60,036 bases of DNA from a virus (taxonomy: Duplodnaviria; Heunggongvirae; Uroviricota; Caudoviricetes). Within the stretch, counting starts at the first letter, position 1; each line of letters opens with the position of its first letter. A program made the position numbers and the translations under genes. This document shows, in pieces, positions 10,727 through 33,154 of the stretch. The notes under the pieces are model-generated. The model had not been told where the DNA came from, made no database searches, and was given only the letters and a program-made list of their open reading frames with translations. The stretch spans positions 64,001 to 124,036 of the IMG/VR virus record IMGVR_UViG_3300017605_000626; one strand, given 5' to 3'.

Positions 10727-10730
10727 ATAG

Positions 10731-16700: not shown

Positions 16701-18083
16701 AAAGAAGATAGACTTAGAGAGCTTAATGTAGAGATTGCTCATCAAGCAAGAATTGTTGCGCAGCAGAAACAAATATTCAACTTAGCCTCTAGCACCGCAG
16801 ATTTAAAGGCTAGGTCTAATGCTTTAGAGGAAGCTAGTTTACAAAGACAGCTTGATAAGATCCGTCAAATAAAAGAGGTTGTAGATGGTATAAAGGAGAA
16901 TAATGGAGTATTTACTATTGATCCAGCTTTATTAGCTGCTGCTGGAATTAATCCTAACACAACAACTCCACAAGGAATACAAAATCCTTCCGCTCAGCAG
17001 CAGATTGTTTTAAATTCTAGTGATTTTGATCAAAGCTCGGAAAAATTTAGATTATCTAGTGATAATATTTTTGGGGCTACTAATACATTTGATAGTAGTG
17101 TTTCTAAATTTAGTCAAACTGTCGATAATATTCCTGTTAATACTTTTGAGGCGCCTGCCGTTGTTAACGTAGATTTTTCTAAGGTTGAGTCTTCACTAGA
17201 TACTTTATCTGAGAGCACAATTAAAACGTCTAAAAAGCTTTTAACTATTGAGCCACCAAAACAACAAGTAATAGATGTCAAGCCTTTGGACGATTCTTTA
17301 ACTTCTGCTTCAAGTAAGTTTCAAACTTCGTTAAAAGAAGTAACTAGTACTATAAAGGATGTAACTACTAGATTAGAGAATATAGATATATCTGTTCCTA
17401 AAATAATTGGATTAAATGATTTTGAAACTTCTTTTAAAGAGATAATAAAAACTTTAAATGATGTGACTATTGAGTTAAATCAAATAAGCGTGCCTTTACC
17501 AGAAGTAACTGGATTTGATCATTTTGAAAATTCTTTAAATAGTGCATCAAGTATTTTAGATAGTACAATTAATAAGTTAGAAAAAATAGTCATTCCAGTT
17601 CCAAAAATAACTGGATTGGAAAATCTTGAAATAGCTTTAAAAGACACTACATCATTTATTTCTAATTTTACTAAGAATCCTGCATTTACTTTTGTTGAAG
17701 ATAGATTATTATCCTCTATGGAAGGTTTTACGAATAGCATAGATGATATAGAAATCCCCAAGTTAGAAATTGCTGATACAAAGCAAGTTGCTGATCCTTT
17801 AAATATATTAGTAGAAACGCTAGATAAAATTTTTGTTCAAATAAAAAGTTCTTTTGAATTAGTTACAACTGGTTTAAAAGATATAACTTTAAATACCGTT
17901 AGTTTAAAAGATTTAACCTCTAACTTAGGTAATATTACTAATAATAATAATATGAACACTATTCTTACCAACCCTACTTTTATTATTAATGTGCCAGAAG
18001 GTGTAGATGGTGTTCAATTTGGTCGGGATATGTTAGGAGTTTGGCAAGAAGAACAAACTCGTTTTGGTTTTAACAATCAATAA
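10731..18083 (+). CDS. Tape measure protein
   Basis: 2450 aa, alpha-helical/coiled-coil with Gly-rich amphipathic stretches; follows the G/GT chaperones. Confidence 0.92.
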   Translation: MPPTFNEILGMRLDFSEFLQDFEKFKVEYQKKIKSLDEIEISSKAQKVVDSLGINEVSKEISNLTKAFSEFSDILKANFVNPIKKGADEAAKAMQNLGSETKAAFTPLKEFNVQDIAKDEQDVINTTELLNKNLSELVRLIIHRQELHKQGTDLTSIEKEIKFLEEENRLLIKVNNEQDKLNKSKEKAKESTGDVGGIGGNEGDLVRSSKAIADEQLKLVRAGKMFEQVTEDAKIRQADFRQLALDTQEILFREISQGIETGGEITFDKLTQINQKWFADQKAIRAKDDVAYDSFLQNREALTKKSLDALSTQQKQLLEIQDLKQKAISQRAIVFDSGEATEKDRARAEQSVENFTKAEEAKRAQIAITREVTLHAHEIQDQAQLNSIEKTLVASEKAADKRVNIAIRSEEQTSAAIEKIRNKEIASEEARNAKREKIKLSLSRVNKQFADLQFAQQGALDEISKAPNVDLFKTTLAELEKLVQDSFAKRTAFAEQHAKLDQALATETNTVVIQGIRNELAIRLDAYNESIRAAEKFAASITKKPENALKDLGLSNEQLKIEREKANVIRDSQDEIGKLKVRSDRIEERRQQSELERNKAVESNKSQELINALDKRLQAIKDYFAAVERLTQVHNAKIKEASSQQTGIFNKSSQIAVDFEEANKAVSKTSKSLALADDTVGRVKEKATGLSQIFASFSKDIFKTIGTVAKFGLIWNTVGFIIEGALFPFKLFVKSLQDGFTFLVNLQQKLADVRENLVQNVTFAKNLADNFELAGKVATFLTLEQERAAALIGVEADKFRQVFESFSSTGGIKGVKRATDDTEQALSRAVRTSALLVAALNAVGVGSENTRRQTTEIGKLLEGQVTQRDRIRIASGLTVKELNKQSLEAQKQGKFLEFVEGLFGAQVKRLESANDRFKELNTQVQFFVNRLQAAFVEQIFSEVVKALKDVLKFLKENEKELIVFARIGGATFKGFLVLLLEIGKTFGVVFKGVFELVGKIITLDGVLNDTTDSLHKLGEESSSISNLNDLSLALFRTFQHISLVVFAVNNGLKAMFQILKNGPSGLDPVGRFFNVSSDRSKAAKDYTEALKTITESEEKFVKKRGELLQEEDNLRFTIGSLSERAAKDIEHNNNKAAEDKIKNANEDKKRLEANLEEQKRIETKFLSEKAEFDKKKQKAIELDSAIVLDTTFQAFDDQKKLLDKEFDELRKLGKKQEKQGLPTIIGFPKKEGPETKPKFDNAQLQDALRQFKEDADLIRNLFAELRDDVNQAVAANEKDIIPARSELISLFKSQGEALTGLANDFIKNLNKIKGAANPKDVEKTKDQLVRAKIDAEEESRKAIAKIIREGTAEEKAQELERLKNSIETLTQEGNARINLIKSQVELGVKLRSDVAQEEIELNRQIFEESLKINDLELDLADQNQSKIEKILIDRARSIITFNEKNAQLVNERIKLLEEELIATEEQARAIFEVRNNLNKELNELAKKGTATEFEKTRIDNLNLQLESKSLDLRVKQNQLEFESNERQKEQIRAKLAEFNIIKLTRDLDATEAQQLLFSQKALEEKSQIYRRLKVQQEELTSELVKQNEAIAEGNVRQNRGLGSATLNFLTGREVDVQRFNRNPQAQATVIRGVAARVTSEPVKKFLNDLADEVEKNLTKQFGGKFNKFKFGIDTAADAILGLASLITNLAGAFREGIGQGITALGGIIRTIGGSIGQLGTALPKIGKALSGIFGKGFGKTLGKIFEAAGPIAEIIGVGVQLFSAIFSRAAKRIAEDIKKNIERITKNLDRGITGLGDTIVELEKQRVDAIRRLSGKKGGQKELDQILPGLEDQIFSLKKQQKDVQEAFEDQLSVLRLNSDALVSFNRSWKDVVKTVKDYLDSFAKGEDLLKAQANAAEFLSLSLKKIREDFLDQIESEEQSAIDSAIEFNDLLKEREDLLKDLIKLQEEFNKAQFDLLTEDAVEARVAGVVERGNKIVQLRKDFEESKAEKEDRLRELNVEIAHQARIVAQQKQIFNLASSTADLKARSNALEEASLQRQLDKIRQIKEVVDGIKENNGVFTIDPALLAAAGINPNTTTPQGIQNPSAQQQIVLNSSDFDQSSEKFRLSSDNIFGATNTFDSSVSKFSQTVDNIPVNTFEAPAVVNVDFSKVESSLDTLSESTIKTSKKLLTIEPPKQQVIDVKPLDDSLTSASSKFQTSLKEVTSTIKDVTTRLENIDISVPKIIGLNDFETSFKEIIKTLNDVTIELNQISVPLPEVTGFDHFENSLNSASSILDSTINKLEKIVIPVPKITGLENLEIALKDTTSFISNFTKNPAFTFVEDRLLSSMEGFTNSIDDIEIPKLEIADTKQVADPLNILVETLDKIFVQIKSSFELVTTGLKDITLNTVSLKDLTSNLGNITNNNNMNTILTNPTFIINVPEGVDGVQFGRDMLGVWQEEQTRFGFNNQ
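17316..17660 (+). repeat. Three to four tandem 34-aa repeats in the TMP C-terminus
   Basis: KFQTSLKE..VPKIIGLN / DFETSFKE..LPEVTGFD / HFENSLNS..VPKITGLE, each 34 aa. Confidence 0.7.
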
Positions 18084-18087
18084 ATAT

Positions 18088-18456
18088 ATGTTTAAACTTC
18101 ATAAATTTGATGAAACGCATGTGGACGAAGACTTAACAAAAATTTGTAATAAGGAGTATAAAAACGCTTTGTTATTTAATTGTAAGTTTAAAGATCTTCG
18201 TAACGTTACATTTAAAGATTGTGACATGAATCAAAGTAGAATTCTTTCTGATAGGATTGAAGAATTACTGGGATTTACTGCTACATTTTCATGCAAGCAT
18301 TTTCATAATGTAGAACTATCAGAGCTGGTCTTTGATTTATTTATAATGCTTCTTATTCAAAGTAAGGGTAATGATGAGAAGAGGAGTAAATTAAAGGAAA
18401 TTTTAGGACAGGAAAAATTAGATTTCTTTATTAATAAACTTAAGGACTTAGAATAA
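18088..18456 (+). CDS. Hypothetical protein with pentapeptide-repeat-like segment
   Basis: ORF track 18064..18456; likelier ATG at 18088 just after the TMP stop; FNCKF-KDLRN-VTFKD-CDMNQ. Confidence 0.5.
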   Translation: MFKLHKFDETHVDEDLTKICNKEYKNALLFNCKFKDLRNVTFKDCDMNQSRILSDRIEELLGFTATFSCKHFHNVELSELVFDLFIMLLIQSKGNDEKRSKLKEILGQEKLDFFINKLKDLE

Positions 18457-21400
18457 ATGGCACTTAGTTTTACCAGTGATGACCCTACATTAGCAGGCAT
18501 AGATTTCATAAAGTATCTTACGGATAAGCCTGTTATATCTAGAGGTATAAACCAACCATCTACTTGTGATATGACTTTTGCTAAGTGGGGAAGTGGATTT
18601 GTGCTTCCGAGAAGAGGGTCTTATTTTACTTTTGGAACTACTGCAAATGCAAAGTTTTGGACAGGATTTTTAATTGAAGACCCAGATTTAGAGTATCTAG
18701 GTAAAAAATCTGATGATGATCAACCACAATGGCAGTGGAAATTTAAAGGCACCTCTGATGAATATATATTGAACCTTGCTCCAGTTGGAATTCTTCCTGT
18801 TTATATTAACCAAACACAAGGAAATATTATAAAAGATTTAGCAAGCCGTATTGCTCCATCTAAATTTGATGTAACTAATGTGGATGATGGGCAATTAGTA
18901 CCATACTTTTTTTGTGACCCAACTAAAACTTTTAGTGAAATTGTTAGAGATTTTGCTGAAGCAGCTTACTTTGCTTTTTGGGCCACCGATTTTAAATTAT
19001 ATTATAAACGTCAAGACACTATTACTTCACCAATAATTATTAATGGTAAGACGGATTATTCTAGTAGGGTAAGAATCTCTTCTTCTACCAATGCTTCACC
19101 AATTGTTATTACTACATCTTCTGCACACGGAAGAAGTAATGGAGATTGTGTTTCTATTACTAACCATTTAATTAATACGGCAGCCAATGGTAATTGGATT
19201 ATCCAGAATGTAGCCCCAACAACTATGGAGTTGGTTGGTTCAACTGGTAATGGTGTAGGCGGAGCAACTGGATGGGCTGGACTACATAACCCACATTTTA
19301 CACCAGCTCGATTACAAATTGGCCCAGTAAATGACCCAGTAATTAATGACTGTATTGTAATTGGAGACATAGAGCCACAAGGATTAATAAATGAGTTCTT
19401 TGTTGGCGATGGCCTTACTAATAATTTTCCTTTGTTATCTTCTATATTTGGCACAGATAGTGCTTTATTATTAGATGAAGTTTTTTCTGGTAATACTATT
19501 GATTCTAATAAATGGTTAGAAGTAGACTCTGTTAATGATGTATTAACTGCTGATAATGGTTATCTACAGGTTATTGGAAATGCTCTTGATAATTATGAAG
19601 TATATTTACAGTCAACTGCATTAATACCATTACAAGGAAATTTACGACTAACGCATGGAGAATATGATTTTGTAACTACAACAAATGATGGCGTGGTAGC
19701 ATCTTTGTGGACATCAACCCCTTCGTTTAGTTCAACTGGACCTGTTGAATTTCCTGGGTGTATTTATGGTATTAGAGTTACTTCTAATGGAACAGAAATT
19801 ACTTTAAATCCCATCCTTAATGGAGTGGTACAAGAAGCGGCTGGAGATTCTTATACCGCTTTAACATTATCTGACAATAAAAGATATATTATCAGAACTT
19901 TAGTTAATTTTGAGAATGTTTATAGAAGAGATAGAGAGTCTCTATTTAGATTAATTAATGGAACTTTAGGAAGTTATGGTGGAAACTCTATCCCAGATCA
20001 TCCAGTTTATCGTACTATCATTACAGAGATTGATGCTTTAACTGGTAAGTCAACTACTAATCAAGTGCTTTGGACACATTCAGGAGCAAGCACTGGTGTG
20101 GGTGACACACAATTTTACGCCGCGTATGTTCCAGTGCTTTCTAATGACCTACACCTAACTCTTTCTAATATTACAATTAGTGTTCCAATGCAGGCGTCTT
20201 TGGAAACGCTAGATAAAAATATCTGGTATCCAGAAAGAATGAAGTATGATATTAATACTGGCGAGCCAGTGCCATTTGATACCACTATATTACCTTGGCA
20301 ACCTAAAATAATTGGGCCAAACGAAATAGAATCTTATGACAATATGAATCCTGTGGCTACTATTTTAACTAGTAGACAAGGTAGAATTGATCAAGGAAAT
20401 ATTCTTGGTTCTACTCTTTATAATTCTGGAGATGCATCATTAGCTTTTTTTAAAGACAGTGTTAAGCAGACAGCTAATACACCACCGCCAGGCCAGTTGT
20501 TACATTTAAAATATAGAAGAGCTGGTGTAGCTATTGGTAGAGCACAAAGCACTGATCCAGCCGTCCCTAATAGCATTCCTAATGAAGCTACTCTTTGGGG
20601 AGATAATGGATATCGTACTATAACTAGAAAAGATATTAGTCCATTGCCAAGAACTTCTTTAGAGTGTGAGCAGGTCGCCGCAGCTATTGTGGAGGAGAAT
20701 ATTTATCAACATTATGCTGGCACCTATAATCAATTTAGTAATTATGAGTTTACTCAGAACACTCCAATTCCGGGTGGAATATTATTATTTAAGAACTTAC
20801 CTACAACTTTACCTGATATTCAAGCGGAACAAATTACTAAGGTTGTTTCAACTATTGAGAGTAAATCTCAAGAAATTTTTACGCATGAAATTACTTTTGG
20901 AAAAATAGATAAAGTTAAGAAGTTTTTATCTGGACTAAAAGAAACTAGAAATCCATTTGCACCAACAGATACTGCTGAAGTTCCAACTGCTCAAGATTTA
21001 GAAGATGCTGTTGATTCTACTAATGTTTTATCTTTGATTTATAATTCTATTACTTTGACTTTGACTTATGGAGGCACTTCTAGTGTTTTACCAAATACAG
21101 CTTTAAATGTTGATTTACATCTTAAATTGAAATCTTGGACCAGTGTTCCATCTGATACTATAGTTTCAGGTCTAACAATAGATCAAGAAGATAATAATTA
21201 TCTTGTTATTGATATTGGACAAGCTCCACCAGAAGGCGGTGGTTTTGAAATTAGGTATAGTGATCAAGGATGGGGAGATAGTAATAACAAAAACTTTTTG
21301 GTTTATGACATTATTACGGATGGTAAAACAACAGCACAAGAATTTAAAATCGCTAGAAAAATTAGTAATGTAGTGTTTGTTAAAGCTTATGATTCTAGTG

Positions 21401-22200
21401 GCAAATATTCACGATATGCAAGTGGAATAAGAGTAGTGTTTCCTGGTATTCCTGGTAATTCATCTGGTATTATTGCTAAGGGTGGTACTTTGACTTATCC
21501 AGTTTTTAAGGCGAACCTTCCGATTAATGATAGTGGAAGTGTCGTTTTAAATAGTGATGTTTTTGGATTAGTAGCAACGTACAATCATGAATTATCTTTA
21601 AGTACTAATGTGTTTACTGATAATCGTAATGTTGGTACTAGCATTTCACCTTATCAACCAATTGGAACAGATAATCCCGGTGCTTATAATGTAACGCCAA
21701 CAAGCGATGGATTTCAGTATGGTGGTGCAGATGTATTTCTTGGTGGTGGAGTTACAATTTTTGATAGTGGTTTTATAAATTTTGAAACGGAAATTTCTAT
21801 GCAGAGAGGAGTTTCAATATTTTTTGTTTGGGTTAGGGCTGTTGATGTTACTGAAGATGACGGACTTTATATCAGGTTAAATATTAAGGATGATGCATTG
21901 CTTGGACAAAGCTCAGTTCCTTTTGGTTTCTATTCTCGTCAAGACTATTTATTAACAGGCGATTGGCAACCTTTAGCTACGGTAGTAGATCTTTCAACGG
22001 TTCCAACAGATATTTCAGGCCCAACTCCGCTTAATTATAATTTGGTAATACATAACATTAATACAACTGATTTAAACTTGAAGATATGTTTGCCGTTTTT
22101 AGGAACTAGTTTTTCTAATCATGCAGACATAGTTTTAGGTGCTAGTGAAGATAGCCCCGGCTTAAATTTTACTTATGAGAATATAGGAGTAACAGAATAA
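18457..22200 (+). CDS. Baseplate hub / central tail fibre protein
   Basis: 1247 aa after TMP; hub-like N-terminus, lectin-like central insert, FN3-like C-terminal region; carries an FCCH-like insert at about 19060-19280. Confidence 0.7.
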   Translation: MALSFTSDDPTLAGIDFIKYLTDKPVISRGINQPSTCDMTFAKWGSGFVLPRRGSYFTFGTTANAKFWTGFLIEDPDLEYLGKKSDDDQPQWQWKFKGTSDEYILNLAPVGILPVYINQTQGNIIKDLASRIAPSKFDVTNVDDGQLVPYFFCDPTKTFSEIVRDFAEAAYFAFWATDFKLYYKRQDTITSPIIINGKTDYSSRVRISSSTNASPIVITTSSAHGRSNGDCVSITNHLINTAANGNWIIQNVAPTTMELVGSTGNGVGGATGWAGLHNPHFTPARLQIGPVNDPVINDCIVIGDIEPQGLINEFFVGDGLTNNFPLLSSIFGTDSALLLDEVFSGNTIDSNKWLEVDSVNDVLTADNGYLQVIGNALDNYEVYLQSTALIPLQGNLRLTHGEYDFVTTTNDGVVASLWTSTPSFSSTGPVEFPGCIYGIRVTSNGTEITLNPILNGVVQEAAGDSYTALTLSDNKRYIIRTLVNFENVYRRDRESLFRLINGTLGSYGGNSIPDHPVYRTIITEIDALTGKSTTNQVLWTHSGASTGVGDTQFYAAYVPVLSNDLHLTLSNITISVPMQASLETLDKNIWYPERMKYDINTGEPVPFDTTILPWQPKIIGPNEIESYDNMNPVATILTSRQGRIDQGNILGSTLYNSGDASLAFFKDSVKQTANTPPPGQLLHLKYRRAGVAIGRAQSTDPAVPNSIPNEATLWGDNGYRTITRKDISPLPRTSLECEQVAAAIVEENIYQHYAGTYNQFSNYEFTQNTPIPGGILLFKNLPTTLPDIQAEQITKVVSTIESKSQEIFTHEITFGKIDKVKKFLSGLKETRNPFAPTDTAEVPTAQDLEDAVDSTNVLSLIYNSITLTLTYGGTSSVLPNTALNVDLHLKLKSWTSVPSDTIVSGLTIDQEDNNYLVIDIGQAPPEGGGFEIRYSDQGWGDSNNKNFLVYDIITDGKTTAQEFKIARKISNVVFVKAYDSSGKYSRYASGIRVVFPGIPGNSSGIIAKGGTLTYPVFKANLPINDSGSVVLNSDVFGLVATYNHELSLSTNVFTDNRNVGTSISPYQPIGTDNPGAYNVTPTSDGFQYGGADVFLGGGVTIFDSGFINFETEISMQRGVSIFFVWVRAVDVTEDDGLYIRLNIKDDALLGQSSVPFGFYSRQDYLLTGDWQPLATVVDLSTVPTDISGPTPLNYNLVIHNINTTDLNLKICLPFLGTSFSNHADIVLGASEDSPGLNFTYENIGVTE

Positions 22201-23189
22201 TGGCAACATATTACGTAGCAACAACTGGTAACAATTCAAATCCAGGAACGATAGGTTCCCCGTTTTTGACCATTGCAAAAGGATTGAGTGTGATGGTTGC
22301 TGGAGATACGCTTGATATTAGAACTGGAACATATAATGAAAGTATTAATAGTAATAATCAGACAATTCCTACTGGAACCTCATGGTCAAATGCCCCCCTC
22401 ATTACAGCGCACACCGGAGAAACAGTAACTATACGCAATGTAGGTGCGGTTCACTCTTATGTCAAGTATGTAATTTTTCAGAACATAGTTATAGATGGTC
22501 TAACCACTGAAGAAGAGGTTGTCTCTATCAACAATGGTGCAAACCATGTCCGTTTCACGGGATGTGAAATCAAGAACGCTAACCGTCAAGGTGTTCACTG
22601 TGCTCACGCTGCTGATGGGTACAATGAATTCATCAATTGCAACGTCCACAACAATGGTACAACTCAAAACTTGGATCACGGATTTTACATAGGCTCCACC
22701 AACAATTTAGTTGAGGGGTGCTTAATACACGATAACGCGGCGTTTGGACTCCAAATTTATAACGGTTACGGAGAGCGTGCTGACAACAACACCGTGAGAG
22801 GAAACAAAGTTTACAACAACTCAACACTTGGTACAGGTTCTGGCATTGCTCTCACTTCAGGAACAGGTAATCTTGCGTACAACAACATTATCTATGGGCA
22901 TCAGCTTTACGGAATTGATGTGTCATTTGGAAGCCCTTCAAACACAGGAGTATATAACAATACGGTCTACAATAACGGTGGAGGCATACGTGTTGGCAGT
23001 GATAGTAGTGGTGCCGTAGTTAAAAATAACATTGTCTATAGTTCTGGTGGAATTACGAATAATGGATCAGGAACAATTATGTCAAATAACTTAACCGCAG
23101 ACCCTAGTTTTGTTGATGCTCCTGGAGGAAATTTTCATCTGACTGCTGCAAGTACGAACGCAATTGACCAAGGGGTTGTAATAAATTAG
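22200..23189 (+). CDS. Right-handed beta-helix protein (DUF1565 N-cap; choice-of-anchor Q domain truncated)
   Basis: MATYYVATTGNNSNPGT..PFLTI, Asn-ladder repeats, ends DPSFVD...NFHLTAASTNAIDQGVVIN*. Confidence 0.85.
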   Translation: MATYYVATTGNNSNPGTIGSPFLTIAKGLSVMVAGDTLDIRTGTYNESINSNNQTIPTGTSWSNAPLITAHTGETVTIRNVGAVHSYVKYVIFQNIVIDGLTTEEEVVSINNGANHVRFTGCEIKNANRQGVHCAHAADGYNEFINCNVHNNGTTQNLDHGFYIGSTNNLVEGCLIHDNAAFGLQIYNGYGERADNNTVRGNKVYNNSTLGTGSGIALTSGTGNLAYNNIIYGHQLYGIDVSFGSPSNTGVYNNTVYNNGGGIRVGSDSSGAVVKNNIVYSSGGITNNGSGTIMSNNLTADPSFVDAPGGNFHLTAASTNAIDQGVVIN

Positions 23190-23203
23190 TTAGGAGAAAA
23201 ATT

Positions 23204-26200
23204 ATGCCTTTATTTAATACAGATTATGATGGAAATTTGCGTGGCTCTACGTGGGATATTGGTGCTCTTGAATATGGTTCTACATCATCGTCAGACACAA
23301 CATTTCCAGTTGTACAAATTACAAACCCTACTAATAATCAAACTGTTTCTGGTTCTTTAGTAGTTACTGCCACTGCTTCAGACAATGTTGGTGTTGTCGG
23401 AGTTCAGTTTAAGTTGGATGGAGTCAATCTTGGCACTGAGGATACATCTAGCCCATACTCGATTAATTGGAACACATTGACTATTGCCGACGGAGCTCAC
23501 ACTTTAAGAGCTGCTGCCCGTGATGCTGCTGGAAATGTAACAAATTATGATGTTTCTGTTACAGTTAATAATGCAGTTTCGCAGCCTACTCCTCCTACAT
23601 TGATTGCTGCTTATGCTTTTAATGAAGGTTCTGGAACGATATCTACTGATATTTCTGGTAAAGGGCATGTTGCTACTCTTACTGGTGCTACATGGAACAA
23701 CACAGGAAAGTATGGTAATTCATTAACATTTAATGGCACAAGTGATTATGTGTCTATTGCTGATACAAATGATTTAGATTTTACTTCTGGTATGACTTTG
23801 GAAGCATGGGTTTATCCAACCAGTGTTTCGCCAAACCCTACAGTTATTTTAGTTAAACAACATGTTTACTTTTTGTTTGGCAGTTATACGGGTGGATTTC
23901 CGATGGTAGGTTTCGCTTCTGGTGGATCTAATCGTCTTCTTTCTGGTGTTTCCTCATTACCTCTTAATGTCTGGACTCATCTTGCTGGAACGTATGATGG
24001 TTCTATAATGCGTTTATATGTTAATGGCTTTGAAGTAGCTAATCGTCCAATGACTGGAACCATTGATACTACTGTTAATCAAATGTGGATTGGTTCTAGT
24101 GTCTTTAATGAATTTTTTCCTGGAAGAATTGATGATGTTCGTGTTTACAATGGCGCTTTAACACAGGCAGCTATTCAGGCAGATATGAATACGGCTTTGT
24201 CTGGTGGTGTGCCACCAACTGATACCAGTTTGAAATTGTCGTATGCGTTTGGAGAGGGCTCTGGTGGTACAACAAGCGATTCTTCTGGGAATGGCCATAC
24301 CGGAACTATTTCTGGGGCTTCATGGACTACTTCTGGAAAGTATGGTAATGCTTTAAGTTTTGACGGAATTAATGATATAGTTACGTCTCCAGATGCAAAT
24401 GATTTAGATCTTACTAATGCTATGACTTTGGAAGCATGGGTATTTCCAACTGCCACATTAACCTCACCAGCAGCCGTCATTGCAAAAGAACATGTGTATT
24501 TTTTGTATGCTAATTTGTATAATAATTTACCGCACGGTGGTGTTAGAATTGGAAGTACAAATTATCTTGCCTCTGGTACTTCTCCATTACAACCAAATGT
24601 ATGGACTCACTTAGCGGTAACTTATGATGGCACTATAGTAAGATTATATTCAAATGGTGTACAAGTCTCAACCTTACCAGCTACAGGAAGTATAAGTGTT
24701 AGCGCGAATCAACTTTGGATTGGTTCTAGCGTCTTTAATGAATTTTTTCCTGGAAGAATTGATCAGGTTAGAATTTTTAACAGGGCATTAACTTTAGCAG
24801 AAATTGTTAGCAATATGAATACGGCTATAACTGCTGGACAAGACATTATTCCACCAATTATTTCGTCTGTCACATCTGGAAGTGTAACTAGTTCTAGTGG
24901 TCGTATAACTTGGACAACTAATGAACTTAGTAATTCGCAAGTTGAATATGGCACTACAACTACTTATGGAACATCTTCTATTTTAGATGCTAGTTTAGCT
25001 ACATCTCATACTGTTGATTTGACTGGACTATCACCAAGTACATTGTATCATTACCGTGTGAAATCTAAAGATCCATCTAATAATTTAGCAATGAGTTCTG
25101 ATGCTACATTTACTACGTCAGCGGCTTCAGATGTTACTCCTCCTAATATTTCTGGAGTGGGTACTTCTAATACTACATCTACTTCAGTTAGTATTAATTG
25201 GACAACCAATGAAGCTGGTGACTCGCAGGTTGAGTATGGACCAACTACAGCTTATGAAAATGGAAGTACAACTTTAAATACATCTTTAGTAACCAGTCAT
25301 TCAGTTGGTTTAACTGGATTAATTGCATCAACAACTTATCATTATAGGGTAAAATCTAGAGATGGGGCTGGTAATTTAGCGACAGGAAGTGATAGTAATT
25401 TTACCACCTCCTCACCGCCAGACACTACTGCTCCAATAATTTCAAGTATTATGAATTCCACTCCTACTACTACTGGAACTACTGTTTCATGGTTAACTAA
25501 TGAACTTAGTAATAGTGTTGTAGAGTACGGTATAACTACGTCTTATGGAACTACATCTTCAGATTCTTCATCAGTATTATCTCATAGTGTTAGTTTAAGT
25601 GGGCTGTCATCTGGTACGTTATATCATTATCGTGTTAAAAGCACTGATCCTTCTGGTAATCTTGCTACATCTAGTGATAACACATTTACTACTCAAGTTA
25701 CTCCAGATATAACTCCACCAGTTATTTCTAACCTACAACCTTCTGGGATTTTTCCGGCTGGAACGACCCAAGTAATTTTAAGTTGTATTACAAATGAATT
25801 AGCAACAGTTAAATATGGAGATACATTAGGAACAACTTATGATTTATTGCCTGGGACTTTTAGCACCACAGGTGGAACAACTCATTCTGTAGTTGTTACT
25901 GGTTTAGTTGATGGAACTACTTATAAATATTATATAAAAGCTAGAGACGTGGCTGGTAATGCTAATACTGGAGATCTTTATGTAGTTACATTTTCTGTTA
26001 GTAGTGCTCCTCCACAACAACCTCATGCTAGTATAAAAGTAATTAGTCCTAACGGTGGAGAAAATTGGAAATTAGGTAGTACAAAACAAATTCAATGGTC
26101 TACTATTAGTGTTACTACTAATGTAAAAATTGAATTACTTCGAAATGGAAGTTATTTAACTTTATTTAGTAATCTCAGTAACACAGGAAGTGCTTCTTGG

Positions 26201-26299
26201 GTTGTTTCAGGAGCTAGAGACAATCATTGTAAAATACGTATTTCTACTGTAGATGGTACTGTTACGGGCAGTAGTCCTGATTTCTTTAAGATAACTTAA
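23204..26299 (+). CDS. Multidomain tail appendage/adhesin: MPLF header, Big-Ig, 2x LamG, 3-4x FN3, Kre9/KNH-like Ig
   Basis: WDIGALEY; VQFKLDG..WNT..DG.HTL.A.ARDAAGN; two AYAFxEGSG..WTHLA.TYDG..GRIDxVR repeats; WTTNE..VEYG..YHYRVKS repeats; SPNGGENW. Confidence 0.85.
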   Translation: MPLFNTDYDGNLRGSTWDIGALEYGSTSSSDTTFPVVQITNPTNNQTVSGSLVVTATASDNVGVVGVQFKLDGVNLGTEDTSSPYSINWNTLTIADGAHTLRAAARDAAGNVTNYDVSVTVNNAVSQPTPPTLIAAYAFNEGSGTISTDISGKGHVATLTGATWNNTGKYGNSLTFNGTSDYVSIADTNDLDFTSGMTLEAWVYPTSVSPNPTVILVKQHVYFLFGSYTGGFPMVGFASGGSNRLLSGVSSLPLNVWTHLAGTYDGSIMRLYVNGFEVANRPMTGTIDTTVNQMWIGSSVFNEFFPGRIDDVRVYNGALTQAAIQADMNTALSGGVPPTDTSLKLSYAFGEGSGGTTSDSSGNGHTGTISGASWTTSGKYGNALSFDGINDIVTSPDANDLDLTNAMTLEAWVFPTATLTSPAAVIAKEHVYFLYANLYNNLPHGGVRIGSTNYLASGTSPLQPNVWTHLAVTYDGTIVRLYSNGVQVSTLPATGSISVSANQLWIGSSVFNEFFPGRIDQVRIFNRALTLAEIVSNMNTAITAGQDIIPPIISSVTSGSVTSSSGRITWTTNELSNSQVEYGTTTTYGTSSILDASLATSHTVDLTGLSPSTLYHYRVKSKDPSNNLAMSSDATFTTSAASDVTPPNISGVGTSNTTSTSVSINWTTNEAGDSQVEYGPTTAYENGSTTLNTSLVTSHSVGLTGLIASTTYHYRVKSRDGAGNLATGSDSNFTTSSPPDTTAPIISSIMNSTPTTTGTTVSWLTNELSNSVVEYGITTSYGTTSSDSSSVLSHSVSLSGLSSGTLYHYRVKSTDPSGNLATSSDNTFTTQVTPDITPPVISNLQPSGIFPAGTTQVILSCITNELATVKYGDTLGTTYDLLPGTFSTTGGTTHSVVVTGLVDGTTYKYYIKARDVAGNANTGDLYVVTFSVSSAPPQQPHASIKVISPNGGENWKLGSTKQIQWSTISVTTNVKIELLRNGSYLTLFSNLSNTGSASWVVSGARDNHCKIRISTVDGTVTGSSPDFFKIT
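23600..24830 (+). repeat. Tandem duplication of a LamG domain (about 630-bp unit)
   Basis: Near-identical DNA: TATGACTTTGGAAGCATGGGT at 23791 and 24421; TGGATTGGTTCTAGYGTCTTTAATGAATTTTTTCCTGGAAGAATTGAT in both units. Confidence 0.85.
24840..25700 (+). repeat. Three tandem FN3-like repeats (about 290-bp unit)
   Basis: Repeated DxTxPxIS..WxTNE..SxVEYG..SH.V.LxGL..T.YHYRVKS.D..NLA. Confidence 0.8.
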
Positions 26300-26315
26300 C
26301 TGGTGAGGAATTAAT

Positions 26316-27338
26316 ATGGCAACTTTTTATGTTTCAAAAACAGGAAGTGATGTTAATCCTGGAACATTTAGACAACCTAAGTTGACTATTGCAGATGGTA
26401 TGCGGTCTTTAGGTAGTGGAGATATTCTTTATGTGCTGGCAGGAACGTATACAGAGGGCTTTGTTTTTACAAATACTATAAGAACCGATCATTCTTTGTG
26501 GATGAAATCTCCAAAAGTTATTGCTTATCCTAATAATACAGTAATTTTAACTTCTAATATTACATCACAATCTAGAACACTCGTATATTATAGACTACAA
26601 GGATTACATGTTATGCAGGAGCCAATAAATTATGCTGGTGTTACTTTATTTGATATAGAAAATATAAGAGATAGTGCAGAAGGTAAAGTACATGCATTAT
26701 CTTTTAGTGCAGGCGGCCCAGATTATGTTACAACCGCTCCATCAGATTTAACTAGACCAACTGCTATTATAACTTCTCATGCTGATAGAGACGAGGTATA
26801 TGGAACTATCACTATAGAGGCCACTATTACAGATAATGTCGCTGTTGCTAGTAGTTGGTTAAAATTAGATGGTGAAACAGTACATAGTGAAGAGCCTGAA
26901 GATGTTTGTGAGTTTACATGGGATACAACATTATCTTTAAATGGAGAACATACTATACAAGTTTTTGGGAAAGATACATCTGGTAATATAGGAATTTCTC
27001 CACCAATAACAATTATTGTAAATAATACGCCTGAAATAGAACAGGCTGATCCATCTTTATTGCAGCCCTCAATAACTGTCACTTGTCCTTGGGGAGTTGA
27101 AAAATGGGGAAATGGAATTGAGGTTGATATTACTTGGACTTCTATTGGTATTGAAGGTAATTTAGATATATATTTACTTAGAGATGGATTTCCATATCAA
27201 ATTTTTGGAAATATATCAAATAGTGGTACAGTGCCTTGGACAGTTTTTGGTAACAAAGCGCCTAATTGCCAGATACAAATTAAAAGTATTAACAATTTAA
27301 ATGTAATTGGGTTAAGTGAATTTTTTGACATAGTTTAA
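26316..27338 (+). CDS. Tail appendage protein: DUF1565-like N-cap, Big-Ig, Kre9/KNH-like Ig
   Basis: MATFYVSKTGSDVNPGT..LTIADG; WDTT...NGEHTIQVFGKDTSGN; C-terminal Ig like that of 23204. Confidence 0.7.
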   Translation: MATFYVSKTGSDVNPGTFRQPKLTIADGMRSLGSGDILYVLAGTYTEGFVFTNTIRTDHSLWMKSPKVIAYPNNTVILTSNITSQSRTLVYYRLQGLHVMQEPINYAGVTLFDIENIRDSAEGKVHALSFSAGGPDYVTTAPSDLTRPTAIITSHADRDEVYGTITIEATITDNVAVASSWLKLDGETVHSEEPEDVCEFTWDTTLSLNGEHTIQVFGKDTSGNIGISPPITIIVNNTPEIEQADPSLLQPSITVTCPWGVEKWGNGIEVDITWTSIGIEGNLDIYLLRDGFPYQIFGNISNSGTVPWTVFGNKAPNCQIQIKSINNLNVIGLSEFFDIV

Positions 27339-27349
27339 TAGGAGAAATT

Positions 27350-27739
27350 ATGCCTTTGTTTAATACAGACTTTGATGGAGTTATACGTCCGCAAGGCAAT
27401 GCTTGGGATATCGGGGCATGTGAATTTGTTTCTAGTAGCCCACAACCAGTAATTTCCACTCTTTCTATTATTGCTCCAAACGGTGGAGAACGTTTAAAGA
27501 CTGGCCGTTGGAAAAGTTTTTATTGGGCTTCAACAAATTTATCTGAAGGGGCTATGATTAAGGTTGAGTTATCTAGGAATAATGGAGGTAGTTACCAATT
27601 CTTATTTAATACATCAAATTCAGGTAGTGCGAATTGGTGGGTTGTAGGACCAACATCTAATGCATGTCTCATTAAATTAAGTAGTTTAGATTATCCAAAC
27701 GTGTTTAGTGTTAGTAATCACGTATTTAAAGTGATGTAA
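27350..27739 (+). CDS. Small tail appendage protein: MPLF header plus Kre9/KNH-like Ig
   Basis: MPLFNTDFDGVIRPQGNAWDIGACEF; APNGGERL; AGGAG RBS. Confidence 0.75.
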   Translation: MPLFNTDFDGVIRPQGNAWDIGACEFVSSSPQPVISTLSIIAPNGGERLKTGRWKSFYWASTNLSEGAMIKVELSRNNGGSYQFLFNTSNSGSANWWVVGPTSNACLIKLSSLDYPNVFSVSNHVFKVM

Positions 27740-27754
27740 AGAGATTTAATTATA

Positions 27755-28006
27755 ATGCCTTTATTTACTACAGATTACGATGGTGTTACTAGGCCGCAAG
27801 GATCGGCGTGGGATATTGGTGCTCTTGAATATGTTGGTGGGGGAACTCCTGACACTACCGATCCTACTGGATCTATTACTGCTCCTAGTAATGGTGCAAC
27901 TGTGGCTGGCACTATTACAATAATTTGTGCTGCTACGGACAATATTGGAGTGGCTAATGTGCAATTTTATTTAGATGGAACTCCGCTTGGAGGGCCTGTA
28001 ACTTAG
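27755..28006 (+). CDS. MPLF header plus first half of a Big-Ig domain
   Basis: MPLFTTDYDGVTRPQGSAWDIGALEY..VQFYLDGTPLGGPVT*; the domain continues in the +1 frame at 28008. Confidence 0.7.
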   Translation: MPLFTTDYDGVTRPQGSAWDIGALEYVGGGTPDTTDPTGSITAPSNGATVAGTITIICAATDNIGVANVQFYLDGTPLGGPVT

Positions 28007-28007
28007 T

Positions 28008-30197
28008 ATGTCTAATTTTTCATTGCCGTGGAATACAGCTACATCCCCTAATGGACCTCATACTATTTACGCGGTAGTTACAGATTTTTCTGGTAATACT
28101 GTTACAACGAGTACAATTAATGTAACGGTACTAAATGATGAGCCTGCTCCACCAGATACACCTCCAACACCGACCCCTCCTCCAGTTGTTGTACCACAGA
28201 CAACAACTACAGAGCCTATTCCGTTAGGGGCGTTATTTTACAATACACTTGGTGAGTTTTCTACATTCATAGCACAAGCTGTTTTTCCTAGTGCGACTGA
28301 TCCAGACGCTAGTGGTAATTTTACCGATGATTGGATTGATGTTGTTAGGGACTTGGGGGTTGTTGGAGATGGTTCAGACGAAACTGAGAAAGTTCAAACA
28401 GCATTAGATCAAGCAAGGGACAATGTAATAGCAGGAGCAGGTAAAACTAGAGTTCTTATTCCAAGCAGTGTGGTGGTTAGTGTTGCTCCTGTAGAAAATG
28501 ATTTATGTGATGGGTCTTACTATAACTCTGTTGGTGTTTGTTTGTGGATAGATAGTGGTGTTCATTTTAGAGTTAATGGGGTTTTGAAAGCAAGATTTGG
28601 TTCTATTCAGACTTATTCTAATGGGCAAATAACTATATTAGAAGCGCGTAATTCATTTGTAGGTGCTATTGATTCTGGAGATCACGATATTGTTATTGAT
28701 GGTACAGGCACAATTGATTTAGAAGGTATCTATGATACTAATGGTGAATTTACTGATGATGAAACAGAATCCTTAGCTAAACAAATAAAATCTCTATGGG
28801 CATTGAGGGCATATAAAGTAAGTAAGTTGACAGTTAAAGATTTAACAATTGCACATGGTATTGGAGAGAAGTTCCAAATAGGTTTTTCTGAGTTTGTGAA
28901 TTTTGATAATGTTAAATTTGATACTGCTCTGAGATATGAAGTTAGTAATGAAATAGATACGGCATTAATTAATTTAGATGTTTGTCGTGGTGTTCATGTT
29001 ACTGGTTGTTATAGTAAGAATTGTAGTATTTATAGGGGAGTGGCTTGTTGGGCAAGCACAGAAGTTACAATTGATGGAAATGATTTTTCTGATTTAACTG
29101 GGGCGACAGGCGCTGAAATTGAAGAAGTAGATGTTGGAGTTTCTAGAATTTGGGACGGCTCTGTTTCTAACTATATTAAGTTAACTGGCCAAGGATTATT
29201 TAATGGTGCTTCTTGTCAGTGTGCTTGGATTGAGCCTGCTAGTATAGGAGTGTTGGGGACGATTCTTGGGAACAGGTTCGACTCTGGTTATTCTATGAGA
29301 ATAACTGCTGCCAATGAGCTAGAATTGTTCTGGTCTACAGAGCCATTAGTGGCGGGCAATTGGACAGATTATTCATTGAAAGTTCCATTAACAACTGCTG
29401 GCGGAGCATCGTCAAATTTTTTGGTGGCGGGTAGACCTCTTTTTGTTGCTATAAATGTTACTTTTTCGGGTGCTCCTGTCATTGCTGACTTTTATGCTGG
29501 CTTTACTCCAGGCAGTGTGCAGCTCCTTGGCACGGTAAGTGGTGGTCATGCTATAGCACCTAATGGCACGATTGCATGTGGTATCGGAGTAAATATGTAT
29601 GGTTTAACCCCGCAGCACGCCTTTAATGGTAAGCTTGCTCGAATTGCGGTAATTACTCGCGCTCTTACCGTAAGTGAATTAAGAGCGTTTGCTGCTTGTG
29701 GGGCACTACCACCAGATGCAGATGTTGCTATTACTAGGTTCTTTTTGGAAATTACTGGTGATTCCCCTGAACCAAATAATTATGGAACGTCCATTCCTGG
29801 AACTGTTGTTGGTTCTCTGCCGATAGCTGATGGTTTATGTGGTAATGTTGACGACTTAACTACTCCAGGAATAGGCACTGCTGTTTGGTTTACAGATTAT
29901 GGTATGGAATTTATTGAAAAAGATATGGCTTACGATGAGGATATTTATGATTTGGATGCAGGTTTAGATTCCAGACTAAAAATTACTAACAACACATTCT
30001 GTCGTAATGGTTCTGATGGGATTAGAATTTTGGGCGCGGCCCAACAAGGGACGCTCACTGACAGTGTTACGATTGTGAACAACACTATTTGTAGTAACGG
30101 GGCCAGTGGTATTTTGATTGATGGTTTGAAAGATTTCATTATTAACGATAATCAGATTAAAAATAATGGTCATGGTTATCCTCTTCAGTTTGATTAG
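28008..30197 (+). CDS. Tailspike-like beta-helix protein (second half of Ig, pectate-lyase-3-like start, nested LamG)
   Basis: WNTATSPNGPHTIYAVVTDFSGN; DLGVVGDGSDETEKVQTALD; FNGKLARIAVITRALT; Asn-ladder C-terminus. Confidence 0.75.
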   Translation: MSNFSLPWNTATSPNGPHTIYAVVTDFSGNTVTTSTINVTVLNDEPAPPDTPPTPTPPPVVVPQTTTTEPIPLGALFYNTLGEFSTFIAQAVFPSATDPDASGNFTDDWIDVVRDLGVVGDGSDETEKVQTALDQARDNVIAGAGKTRVLIPSSVVVSVAPVENDLCDGSYYNSVGVCLWIDSGVHFRVNGVLKARFGSIQTYSNGQITILEARNSFVGAIDSGDHDIVIDGTGTIDLEGIYDTNGEFTDDETESLAKQIKSLWALRAYKVSKLTVKDLTIAHGIGEKFQIGFSEFVNFDNVKFDTALRYEVSNEIDTALINLDVCRGVHVTGCYSKNCSIYRGVACWASTEVTIDGNDFSDLTGATGAEIEEVDVGVSRIWDGSVSNYIKLTGQGLFNGASCQCAWIEPASIGVLGTILGNRFDSGYSMRITAANELELFWSTEPLVAGNWTDYSLKVPLTTAGGASSNFLVAGRPLFVAINVTFSGAPVIADFYAGFTPGSVQLLGTVSGGHAIAPNGTIACGIGVNMYGLTPQHAFNGKLARIAVITRALTVSELRAFAACGALPPDADVAITRFFLEITGDSPEPNNYGTSIPGTVVGSLPIADGLCGNVDDLTTPGIGTAVWFTDYGMEFIEKDMAYDEDIYDLDAGLDSRLKITNNTFCRNGSDGIRILGAAQQGTLTDSVTIVNNTICSNGASGILIDGLKDFIINDNQIKNNGHGYPLQFD

Positions 30198-30205
30198 GAC
30201 TAGAA

Positions 30206-31384
30206 ATGGCTATATTAGATTTTCCACCAAATAATTTAGAGGCTACTTACACTGTTAAACAGTTTGCTATTGGCCAAAGACTTGTAGTTTATTTAGTTTG
30301 GGAACCTGGGGCAACTGCTAATGGAGTATATTTTAGTTTGGAGTTTTGTACAGGTGCAGCATGTAGTGGATTTACTGAGTTTACTACTGACCTTGTGTTT
30401 CCCTATGTTGCAAGCAATACTGGGCTTGCCACGTTTCTTGATGGGTATGATAGAACACTTACCCCATCCACAGTATATAGATATAGAGTCAGGAACCAGT
30501 ATGCAGGTGGATATAGCACTTATTCTAATATTGCTGAGGTTACACTGCCAGCGTTTACCCCTGATCCTGTGCCAGACCCCGGCACAAACACGGCGCCACC
30601 ATTGCCACCGTCTAATCTAACAGGGTCTGCAACGGCCAATGATATTGATCTTTTGTGGGATGACAACTCTGATAATGAAACAAGTTTTATATTACAGAGA
30701 TCAAGTGAAGTTGATGCTACTTGGAGAACAATAACTAATCTTGCTCCTAATACTGTTTCATATTCTGATACTGGATTGTCTTATGATGTTTCATATTTCT
30801 ATAGAATTAAATCAGCCAATCAATATGGAGAATCTGCATATATTACTTCTGCTGCAATTACTACTGATCCTCTGACAGTATCTAATCTTGGCGCACCTAC
30901 GTTTTCTTCTGCAACGGCTGAGTTTGTTTCTGGAGTTCCACAAGTAAACCTAGTTTGGATTGATAATGCAACTACTGAAACAGCTTATATTATTGAGCGT
31001 AAAATAGGTACAGGTGGAACATTTTCTACTTTAGTTGTTACTCTACCAGATGTTCAAGCATTTACAGACACTAATGTTGTATCAGGTGGTATTTATTTGT
31101 ATAGAATCAGAGCTTATCGCAGTTCTGATACACAGTATTCCCCTTGGAGCGCCACAAAGACTGTGGGTGTTGGAGAGGATAATCCAGATACAACTGCTGC
31201 TGGTTACGGAATTGCACATGCTGATATGAATCCATTACAAGGCGGAGTGATTAGGGATAATCAAATTGGTAATAATGGTAAAGCTAATATTAGTGCGACC
31301 ATTTATATAGCCACAGATATTACTATTGATAACCCTGGAACAGAAAATACTTATATACGCAGAGGCGTAGTTATCTACGAATAA
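30206..31384 (+). CDS. Fibronectin type III repeat tail protein
   Basis: Three FN3 units: LxWxDNxxxETxxxxxR..YxYRxxA; beta-helix-like tail. Confidence 0.8.
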   Translation: MAILDFPPNNLEATYTVKQFAIGQRLVVYLVWEPGATANGVYFSLEFCTGAACSGFTEFTTDLVFPYVASNTGLATFLDGYDRTLTPSTVYRYRVRNQYAGGYSTYSNIAEVTLPAFTPDPVPDPGTNTAPPLPPSNLTGSATANDIDLLWDDNSDNETSFILQRSSEVDATWRTITNLAPNTVSYSDTGLSYDVSYFYRIKSANQYGESAYITSAAITTDPLTVSNLGAPTFSSATAEFVSGVPQVNLVWIDNATTETAYIIERKIGTGGTFSTLVVTLPDVQAFTDTNVVSGGIYLYRIRAYRSSDTQYSPWSATKTVGVGEDNPDTTAAGYGIAHADMNPLQGGVIRDNQIGNNGKANISATIYIATDITIDNPGTENTYIRRGVVIYE

Positions 31385-31389
31385 ATAAA

Positions 31390-31887
31390 ATGGGAATTGT
31401 TACATGGGGCAAACGTGCTCTTAATCTTTTAACTGCCAGTAACACTTGGTCTGGAACTAATACATTTCAGACTGCAACATTAGCACAACAAACTACTTCT
31501 AACGCGGCGAAGATAACATTTGGTTGGGTCACTGAACAACTTACTTTAAGTACAGGCGCTGCTACAACTGATACTTCTATGGATTTGCCTGCAAACAGCA
31601 TAATAGATAGTGTCGTATATCGTGTCACAACTACCATTACGACAGCAGCGAGTTATAGTATAGGTGATCCTACTACAGCAGCAAGATTTATTAGCGGTAG
31701 CACGGGATTAACGGCAGGTAGTACAGGGGTTGGATTATTACATATGCAGGGTGGGATAACAACTGATGCAGCAGGACCAGTGCAAATTACAACTGCGAAG
31801 GTGAGGGTAACTTGTAATACTACTCCCGGCGCCGGAGTAATTAGATTAACAGTCTTTTATCGCACATTGACACCGCCAACCTCATAA
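31390..31887 (+). CDS. Putative virion structural protein (Thr/Gly/Ala-rich, beta-rich)
   Basis: ORF track; composition; synteny with tail genes. Confidence 0.5.
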   Translation: MGIVTWGKRALNLLTASNTWSGTNTFQTATLAQQTTSNAAKITFGWVTEQLTLSTGAATTDTSMDLPANSIIDSVVYRVTTTITTAASYSIGDPTTAARFISGSTGLTAGSTGVGLLHMQGGITTDAAGPVQITTAKVRVTCNTTPGAGVIRLTVFYRTLTPPTS

Positions 31888-31899
31888 TGGAGATTTTAA

Positions 31900-32736
31900 A
31901 TGGCAAATAAAATGTTTGGTGCAGTTGTTACTGGCACCGTTGACTTATCCTTAGAAGTTACTTTACATGATAGTACTACTGGAGCAGGTTTAACAGGAGT
32001 AGCTTTTGGGTCAGTAACTACTTATTATTACAGGCAAGGTGCAGCTTCTGCCGTTCAGATTACTATGGCTTCATTAGCTGCAAATAATACTGTTCATACT
32101 GATGGTGGGTGGAGAGAAATAGATTCTACTAATATGCCTGGAGTATATCGTCTTGACTCTACAGACGCCGCTTTTGCAACTGGAGCAGAATGGGTGCATT
32201 TTAATATTAGAGTAACTGGTGCTGATGCAGTTAACTTTACTGTGCCATTAAATAATTTAAGTATTGGAACTACTGGTGGAGTTTTACTTCAGCCAACAAC
32301 ACATACTTCTGCTGTTATTCCTACAGTTAGTACGCTTACAGGCCATACTGCACAAACTGGAGATTCTTACGCCATAGTAAATAGTTCTACATTTGGTAAT
32401 TCAAAGTTAGTAAGATCAACAACACCTGCTAATACACTTACTGTTAATGCTTCTAATCAGGCAAGTATTGATGGCTCTTCTGTTACTTTAGGTTCAACAG
32501 AACGAAATGCTATTGCTGCTGCTATATGGTTATCAAGTCCTGCAACTGAAAGTTATGCTGCTGATGGAGCTATACCTACTTTGGCTCAGTTTTTATTTAT
32601 GATACAACAAAGACAAAATGAGTTTGCAAAGGTAACGACTACAATCACTGTTAAGAAATTAGATGGTACTACAACAGCAGCAACATTTACTTTAAACGAC
32701 AGTACTAATCCAACTACTATTACAAGAGCAAGTTAA
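31900..32736 (+). CDS. Putative virion structural protein
   Basis: ORF track; GGAG RBS; Thr/Ala-rich. Confidence 0.5.
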   Translation: MANKMFGAVVTGTVDLSLEVTLHDSTTGAGLTGVAFGSVTTYYYRQGAASAVQITMASLAANNTVHTDGGWREIDSTNMPGVYRLDSTDAAFATGAEWVHFNIRVTGADAVNFTVPLNNLSIGTTGGVLLQPTTHTSAVIPTVSTLTGHTAQTGDSYAIVNSSTFGNSKLVRSTTPANTLTVNASNQASIDGSSVTLGSTERNAIAAAIWLSSPATESYAADGAIPTLAQFLFMIQQRQNEFAKVTTTITVKKLDGTTTAATFTLNDSTNPTTITRAS

Positions 32737-32763
32737 TGAGCAAAATATTTTAGAGGTAGTATT

Positions 32764-33153
32764 ATGACAGTGCAGGACTTTATTCAGTACGCAGGGGCTG
32801 TAGGAGGAGGAGCAGCTAGTCTTAAATTAATTGAGCTTATAGTGGATTATTTTAAGGCAAGAAGAGAAAAATCTGTAGATTTTAAAAAGATTGACGTAGA
32901 AGAAAATATTGCTTTAACTAAATTAAATATTGAGAGTGAAGATAAACTTAGGCTTGAACTATGGGAAAGAATTAAATCCTTAGAATCAAGAGTAAATGAT
33001 TTAGATAGAAAAGAACAAGATTGTTGGGATAAGTATAATTTATTATTTAAAAGTAATGCAGAACTTTCAGCAGAGCTAAACTACGTGAAGACTATTTTAC
33101 ATAGTAGTAGTTCAGAAATAATTAAACTTCTTCCAAAAAAGGAGGATAAATAA
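32764..33153 (+). CDS. Holin-like / membrane-anchored coiled-coil protein
   Basis: Weakly hydrophobic N-terminal helix, charged coiled coil, position directly after tail genes. Confidence 0.4.
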   Translation: MTVQDFIQYAGAVGGGAASLKLIELIVDYFKARREKSVDFKKIDVEENIALTKLNIESEDKLRLELWERIKSLESRVNDLDRKEQDCWDKYNLLFKSNAELSAELNYVKTILHSSSSEIIKLLPKKEDK

Positions 33154-33154
33154 T

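Follow-up and report, generated by a model that had tools for sequence, protein, structure and literature searches.

The mounting and exchange of several receptor-binding modules on one tail largely decides the host range of a phage, and the branched systems that are known use dedicated adaptor domains for it. In KP32, K11 and KP34, podophages that infect Klebsiella, a conserved N-terminal peptide of RBP2 docks on the branching domain of RBP1, and this arrangement has been validated experimentally (PMC13352976; PMC6872550). Here we describe a cluster of putative distal tail-fibre genes of an uncultured phage, the separate protein products of which may be joined at two kinds of split domain. 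The cluster lies in a 60,036 bp stretch of DNA (the "window"; positions 64,001 to 124,036 of IMG/VR record IMGVR_UViG_3300017605_000626), which is part of a 124-kb linear virus record that is about 75% complete. It seems probable, with the reservations given below, that non-covalent fold complementation connects these modular tail proteins.

The first junction (J1; Table 1) lies at the 3′-end of the beta-helix gene that begins at 22200. Its product matches PF13229 Beta_helix (E 1.7e-15; 57.5 bits, gathering score 25.9) and PF22842 (28.7 bits, gathering score 25.2) and ends in ...GNFHLTAASTNAIDQGVVIN (also given as ...DPSFVDAPGGNFHLTAASTNAIDQGVVIN), which is followed by TAG at 23187-23189. This stop codon falls inside a choice-of-anchor-Q (CAQ) motif, the N-terminal half of which is encoded at about 23100-23186. 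The last 40 residues of the protein, taken alone, give no match to the family profile NF041518 (choice_anch_Q) even at E 10; lined up with fused homologs, they occupy the columns of the N-half one for one. The missing C-half is found at the start of three downstream open reading frames (ORFs), at 23204, 27350 and 27755, as an N-terminal segment called the header here; the ATG at 23204 starts MPLFNTDYDGNLRGSTWDIGALEY. All three headers match NF041518 over profile positions 35-57 of 58 only (E 1.3e-6 to 1e-5 for header 2 and 5e-8 to 1.2e-7 for header 3); the C-half residues D, G, R, D, G, A and E are present in each, and the PQ pair is absent from header 1. The complete 58-position motif does not occur in one polypeptide in the window, and over the full 124-kb record the scan gives a single N-half and three C-halves. 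Where a fused homolog reads GVVL-TEVT-TDYDG, the window has GVVI-N*...M-PLFN-TDYDG, and the interruption, a stop codon, a Shine-Dalgarno sequence and an ATG, is 23 nt in total. An earlier note, made from the letters of the window alone, had described this cut and the three header starts, with a clear AGGAG before the first two, and the profile matches bear it out. Its further statement that deletion of 23184-23206 would restore the normal spacing of the junction agrees with the fused homolog alignment.

The split at J1 is rare among relatives of the beta-helix protein, and it is conserved where it occurs. The protein is 45-68% identical to many single-chain CAQ proteins, to which both halves align gap-free, and in about 111 of 120 homologs (∼93%) the N-half runs straight on into the C-half within a single chain. 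The others are six that run off the ends of their contigs and three that stop at the cut, namely that of the window itself, P0003 (68% identity) in G001 (IMGVR_UViG_3300017605_000342, 160,874 bp) and P0014 (54% identity) in L011, a contig of Logan SRR20958190. These three share the C-terminal sequence AID[QN]GV[VT]IN* (asterisk, stop codon), and after 12-14 nt that include a Shine-Dalgarno-like sequence comes ATG-CCN-YTN-TTY (MPLF); in each of the three genomes the header gene lies directly 3′ of the truncated beta-helix gene. The same stop position and MPLF/MALF start recur across independent assemblies, so the earlier note's proviso that homologs might always be fused, or the split be an artefact of assembly, is contradicted by G001 and L011, where the same split point has its own Shine-Dalgarno sequence and ATG. 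The three split proteins and one truncated fragment form one clade (support 95/93), as would be expected if one fission had occurred and had then persisted while the genomes diverged substantially. Across J1 the frame offset is 2 in the window, 2 in G001 and 0 in L011; because it varies and each plug has its own ATG, the halves should be separate polypeptides with no conserved recoding, and the differing offsets at orthologous junctions speak against programmed frameshift or read-through, which would call for a fixed frame relation and a recoding or slippery signal. Scans by pattern for header-first starts gave G001 as the only hit in viral contigs and none in metagenome contigs, a search with the DNA of 22200-28006 had no match in the phage collection, and the weaker viral relatives L006-L010 are fused or have an unrelated layout. 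Among sequencing runs no RNA run was listed, and in the single DNA run (X1) just two short contigs match the window, at 26141-26350 and 27641-27891, both identically; they cover the start of header 3 and neither junction, possibly come from the source sample, and give no independent support.

Four of the closest fused homologs, P0002, P0004, P0008 and P0009 (56-68% identity), have about 50 extra N-terminal residues that are signal- or leader-like, and they group with phage proteins in one 13-member group. From this grouping it seems that phage tail genes and secreted proteins of cells have exchanged sequences recently.

A second junction (J2) cuts a different domain. The ORF at 27755 covers positions 1-45 of 70 of PF17957 (Big_7), which is thus incomplete, and ends ...VQFYLDGTPLGGPVT (...LDGTPLGGPVT) before its TAG; the ORF at 28008 starts MSNFSLPWNT..., the remainder of the domain. 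Big_7 is complete in the 23204 and 26316 proteins. The GGAGG at this junction encodes Gly-Gly and is also readable as a Shine-Dalgarno sequence. An identical cut, ...GG[PL][VI]T* followed by M, six residues and W[ND]T, is present in the window, L012/L013, L014 and L021-L023, the last three being contigs from three separate samples, and in L012, L014 and L021 the junction reads GGAGG...TAATG. The protein is continuous in G001 (814 aa) and L011 (566 aa). In a structure model of the fused G001 N-terminus, the cut falls in a loop between strands 66-73 and 88-94, which leaves three strands on either side, and the three strands that end the 27755 product would thus be completed by the three that begin the 28008 fibre. 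The frame offset is 1 in the window and 2 elsewhere. A J2 pattern scan returned only spurious non-coding matches (L018, L019). This is a second conserved split, and the Big_7 split at 28006 goes beyond the earlier note, as do the probable recombination role of the headers and the header contigs L014 and L020 discussed below.

The two kinds of joint can be compared across the relatives. In the window and L011 the gene order is beta-helix with CAQ socket, header-first 1031-residue gene, 340-residue gene, header-first 129-residue gene, and then a header-first 83-residue gene or fused fibre; in G001 it is beta-helix with CAQ socket, header-first 129-residue gene and header-first 814-residue gene. 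L012 and L021 have two beta-helix proteins in which the CAQ motif is intact and which each end in half a Big_7 domain, and two genes that start with the other half, one for a fibre and one for a small protein called Kre9-like, an assignment that is only a lead from an Atlas search. L014 has the 83-aa adaptor followed by two genes that start with the second Big_7 half. The small Kre9-like protein carries a CAQ plug in the window, G001 and L011, and a Big_7 plug in L012 and L021, and the Kre9-like C-terminal domains are homologous across plug types (34% identity, E 1e-11). Judged from these layouts, plug type follows socket type, and this is the strongest comparative argument. At J2 sockets and plugs are balanced, 1:1 in the window and 2:2 in both L012 and L021. 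In L014 (983-1398), the Big_7-plug Kre9-like gene is in 75-aa and 50-aa pieces at ∼3.4x coverage, which is probably a frameshift or an assembly error.

Structure prediction is consistent with a physical joint at J1. An AF2 model of P0005, the closest fused relative, has pLDDT >93 across the whole CAQ motif and 41-63 for a dangling half Big_7. The fused homolog model resembles the pectate lyase Pel9A (1ru4; TM 0.66), and PL6 lyases and phage tailspikes also match. The earlier note proposed that the headers dock in trans onto the beta-helix, and this is supported by a complex model in which the 22200 protein was paired with the first 125 residues of the 23204 protein, with an ipSAE of 0.86 against 0.01 for the best control and 0.00 for a control in which the beta-helix was swapped out. 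Of 80 solved complexes 58 reached the calibration mark for this score, as did 2 of 110 mismatched pairs; these counts are a rough guide here, because the analysis's own alignment was used. Contacts were 100% consistent over three runs, with a partner pLDDT of at least 80, and the modelled interface involves only residues 1-25 of the partner, against beta-helix residues 200-329, most prominently the stacked positions 228-230, 253-255, 276-278, 296-298 and 312-329. The header alone, as it stands free in the G001 N-terminus model, is not confidently folded (pLDDT ∼50).

These observations suggest the following arrangement. The J1 socket would be the 22200 beta-helix, which is without the last ∼26 residues of its closing CAQ motif, and the J1 plugs would be the N-termini of the 23204, 27350 and 27755 proteins, which would supply exactly that segment; in the model the plug runs along the last four to five beta-helix rungs. 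The beta-helix could thus be a hub for alternative heads, namely a large LamG/FN3 adhesin, a small Kre9-like Ig protein and a long fibre attached via the 83-aa adaptor, and the conserved headers could also provide homology for gain and loss of head cassettes by recombination. The anatomy of the cuts, their conservation, the selection on the headers and the separate translation signals are plain from the DNA; we infer physical docking, its stoichiometry and the presence of these proteins in the virion. The broader proposal, that there are two orthogonal natural split-fold connectors which have been moved, fused and split at the same residue, that they build branched combinatorial fibres, and that the plugs double as recombination sites, has about an even chance of being right.

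Several points weigh against docking at the beta-helix. Header 1 is a weak match to NF041518 (positions 36-57; E 0.015, under the family cut-off), and the system is rare, being carried by about seven contigs across all collections searched. J1 sockets and plugs are unbalanced, 1:3 in the window and L011 and 1:2 in G001, so that under this arrangement either the plugs compete or each virion must have several copies of the beta-helix, occupied by different plugs. In L014 the header-first 83-aa adaptor directly follows the gene for a homolog of the 1247-aa protein, with no beta-helix gene between, and in L020 a header-first Kre9-like gene lies amid unrelated small genes; these contigs are 4.9 kb and 3.0 kb long, respectively, and the socket gene may sit elsewhere in those genomes. 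The complex model pairs the halves of a split gene in a language-model folder that was trained on many fused relatives, and so speaks for their compatibility rather than for binding. A sequence search of the PDB with the full CAQ motif found no solved chain that has it, and only 9rx2_A, with the N-half alone. This chain is a solved parallel beta-helix repeat protein with the N-half at residues 672-706 of 717, at the chain end; the C-half may thus be dispensable for a complete beta-helix, and the CAQ halves may be separable units in nature outside phages too. Finally, the support for fold complementation is computational throughout.

The most serious alternative is that the headers and the Big_7 cut are recombination joints only, that is, linkers for cassette exchange with stops and starts as by-products, where the header has no docking role and the heads attach otherwise or are non-structural. 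Headers 1 and 3 share a 27-nt identical run (23250-23276 and 27807-27833), and the two-gene cassette that the window and L011 have in addition to the G001 gene set (the header-first 1031-residue gene and the 340-aa gene) has header starts as its exact bounds. These two observations suggest that the headers also serve as homology for cassette gain and loss. The placing of modules, the LamG-like insert included, in different genes in different relatives, and the headers without an adjacent socket in L014 and L020, can be taken the same way. Headers are present in ten copies over five contigs, three of them paralogous in the window. Among nine copies (three each in the window and L011, two in G001 and one in L014), synonymous sites are near saturation (mean pS 0.71) while the peptide is conserved (mean pN 0.15), and the residues D, G, R, D, G, A and E, which do not vary in the fused family, are kept in the copies. 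By this measure the header is under purifying selection as a peptide, and selection has acted on the protein and not on DNA identity alone. That plug type co-varies with socket type and that the complex model docks the header specifically also argue against a purely recombinational role, which we regard as unlikely though by no means negligible. The headers probably do double as recombination sites for head cassettes, and since selection acts on the peptide, this role complements docking rather than replaces it and is compatible with fold complementation.

A less probable alternative, to which we would give perhaps half that weight, is that the header docks elsewhere than on the 22200 beta-helix, for example on the C-terminus of the 1247-aa protein encoded just upstream, and that it resembles the CAQ C-half only because of its ancestry. 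The gene order in L014, and the awkwardness of one socket for three plugs, would be explained by such a partner. However, the C-terminus of the 1247-aa protein, examined as a second CAQ-like socket, has no CAQ-like, beta-helix or other family match, the control in which the beta-helix was replaced lost the docking score altogether, and the constant position of the header gene directly after a truncated beta-helix gene in the window, L011 and G001 points to the beta-helix. Very improbable is the last alternative, that a frameshift or read-through joins the pieces or that they are broken genes or assembly errors: the J2 junction of the window (TAG-T-ATG) differs from the fused G001 version by a small indel and the L011 J1 genes are in the same frame, so that read-through would fuse them, but frame offsets are not conserved at either junction, an ATG is present at every junction and a Shine-Dalgarno sequence at most of them, independent assemblies from JGI, ENA and Logan agree on the cut residue, and all the ORFs concerned are intact and constrained.

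Table 1. Coordinates of the split-domain tail gene cluster and flanking genes in the window (h, header-first)
Feature	Coordinates	Strand	Description
Tape-measure-like protein	ORF ends 18083	+	2450 aa
130-aa protein	18064-18456	+	Between tape-measure-like and 1247-aa genes
1247-aa tail-tip or baseplate protein	18457-22200	+	Stop overlaps beta-helix ATG
Socket 1	22200-23189	+	Pel9A-like right-handed beta-helix, 329 aa; PF13229, PF22842
J1 junction	23187-23206	+	TAG, 14-nt spacer with AGGAG 23192-23196, ATG
Header 1	23204-23281	+	CAQ C-half plug; MPLFNTDYDGNLRGSTWDIGALEYGS
Head 1 (h)	23204-26299	+	1031 aa; header, Big_7, 2x Laminin_G_3, 4x FN3-like, Kre9-like C-terminal domain (Pfam)
340-aa protein	26316-27338	+	Beta-helix N-cap remnant, Big_7, Kre9-like C-terminal domain; neither plug nor socket
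Header 2	27350-27427	+	ORF opens MPLFNTDFDGVIRPQGNAWDIGACEF; AGGAG 27340-27344
Head 2 (h)	27350-27739	+	129 aa; header 2 and Kre9-like Ig domain
Header 3	27755-27832	+	ORF opens MPLFTTDYDGVTRPQGSAWDIGALEY; no clear Shine-Dalgarno sequence
Double adaptor (h)	27755-28006	+	83 aa; header 3 and first half of Big_7 (putative socket 2)
J2 junction	27989-28010	+	GGAGG, TAG 28004-28006, one T, ATG 28008
Head 3, fibre protein	28008-30197	+	729 aa; second Big_7 half (putative plug 2), ends in beta-helix rungs
Downstream tail protein	30206-31384	+	392 aa, FN3-containing; kept 3′ of head 3 in all relatives; context

All genes between 10731 and 33500 are on the + strand, and the region resembles a late tail operon. 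The tape-measure ORF overlaps the 130-aa ORF by 20 nt (18064-18083), the end of the latter (18456) abuts the start of the 1247-aa ORF (18457), and the stop codon of the 1247-aa ORF shares one base (22200) with the ATG of the beta-helix gene; in the relatives TAATG is present at nearly every fibre junction. Such overlapping gene ends and TAATG junctions fit translational coupling and a fixed stoichiometry. A promoter and terminator scan of 17500-33500 stayed within the shuffled background and is uninformative on internal transcription units. The 1247-aa protein, which is presumed to be the attachment base of the fibre cluster, has no family match in profile scans, and its orthologs lie in the equivalent position in L012, L011, L014 and G001.

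The C-terminal domain of head 1 is 43% identical to the 27350 protein, which has orthologs P0274, P0275 and P0276. The N-terminus of the 340-aa protein resembles that of the beta-helix protein (MATFYVSKTGSDVNPGT; Pel9A-like positions 10-53); the rungs and the CAQ motif are absent ahead of its Big_7 and Kre9-like domains, and its length is kept in the L011 counterpart. The L014 ortholog of the 83-aa adaptor (P0122) is also 83 aa long and 75% identical to it; a protein search with this adaptor was swamped by multi-Big_7 repeat proteins and so is uninformative on header-first proteins. The 28008 protein is 54% identical from residue 1 to a 487-aa fibre protein of L012. It contains a ∼245-aa LamG-like module (GNRFD.GY...ELQ/ELF...; residues ∼375-621, window 29130-29870), which in L012 lies in a downstream 643-aa gene (14359-16290) and in L011 in both the homolog of the 1247-aa gene and a 645-aa gene (185-2245 and 9585-11522); the module appears to be a mobile insert domain. 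The C-terminus of the 28008 protein stops mid beta-helix (...IINDNQIKNNGHGYPLQFD*; window 30100-30197), the C-terminus of the 30206 protein contains a rung-like segment (GVIRDNQIGNNGKANIS...YIRRGVVIYE*; window 31250-31384), and both ends are kept in L011, L012, L014 and L021. These ends may be a third fold-complementation joint; HMM scans of the 30206 C-terminus do not support a third split.

If fold complementation is correct, modular fibres can be made in a simple and novel way, by cutting a common domain in two, and this is a possible reason why some tail genes look truncated in mid-domain, genes which annotation pipelines may call pseudogenes or fragments. The 26-residue plug and the half Ig domain would then be ready-made, genetically encoded connector pairs that can be tested in protein and phage engineering, and other genomes can be searched for the same comparative rule, namely that the plugs and sockets of one genome should be of matching type. 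The earlier note knew of no prior description, and likewise none was found in full-text searches on tail-fibre strand complementation and on beta-helix tailspike genes that are split.

The cluster is like the KP32-type systems in that a short conserved N-terminal peptide would mount secondary fibre or spike proteins on a primary tail protein, with exchangeable heads and adjacent genes; such a conserved peptide is present in the window, and the resemblance is one of function only, with no sequence relationship. Whereas the KP32-type peptide binds a dedicated and complete T4gp10-like branching domain, of which Pfam and PHROG scans of the cluster found none at the sequence level, the peptide here is the missing piece of a normally continuous motif. 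The cluster also has a second junction that splits an Ig domain, and its phage, with a 2450-aa tape-measure protein, is not a podophage, unlike KP32, K11 and KP34. In chaperone-usher pili, a subunit's incomplete Ig-like fold takes up the N-terminal segment of the subunit that follows and is completed by it, which builds non-covalent fibres; there a single strand is donated, and a chaperone and an usher are needed. The Big_7 domain here is instead cut into three and three strands, the other joint is the closing motif of a beta-helix, and there is no sequence relationship to donor-strand complementation. SpyTag/SpyCatcher, an engineered split CnaB2 Ig-like domain, reassembles with a covalent isopeptide bond and serves as a protein connector. 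It is analogous only in that both have an Ig-like fold in two parts, and nothing indicates a covalent bond in the window. Ordinary NF041518 beta-helix proteins have a continuous motif, after which the chain goes on into Big_7, FN3 or sorting signals, and it is this chain that is interrupted here. Thus, the logic of docking is that known from the Klebsiella podophages, and what appears to be new is the use of a cut through a normally continuous domain as the joint.

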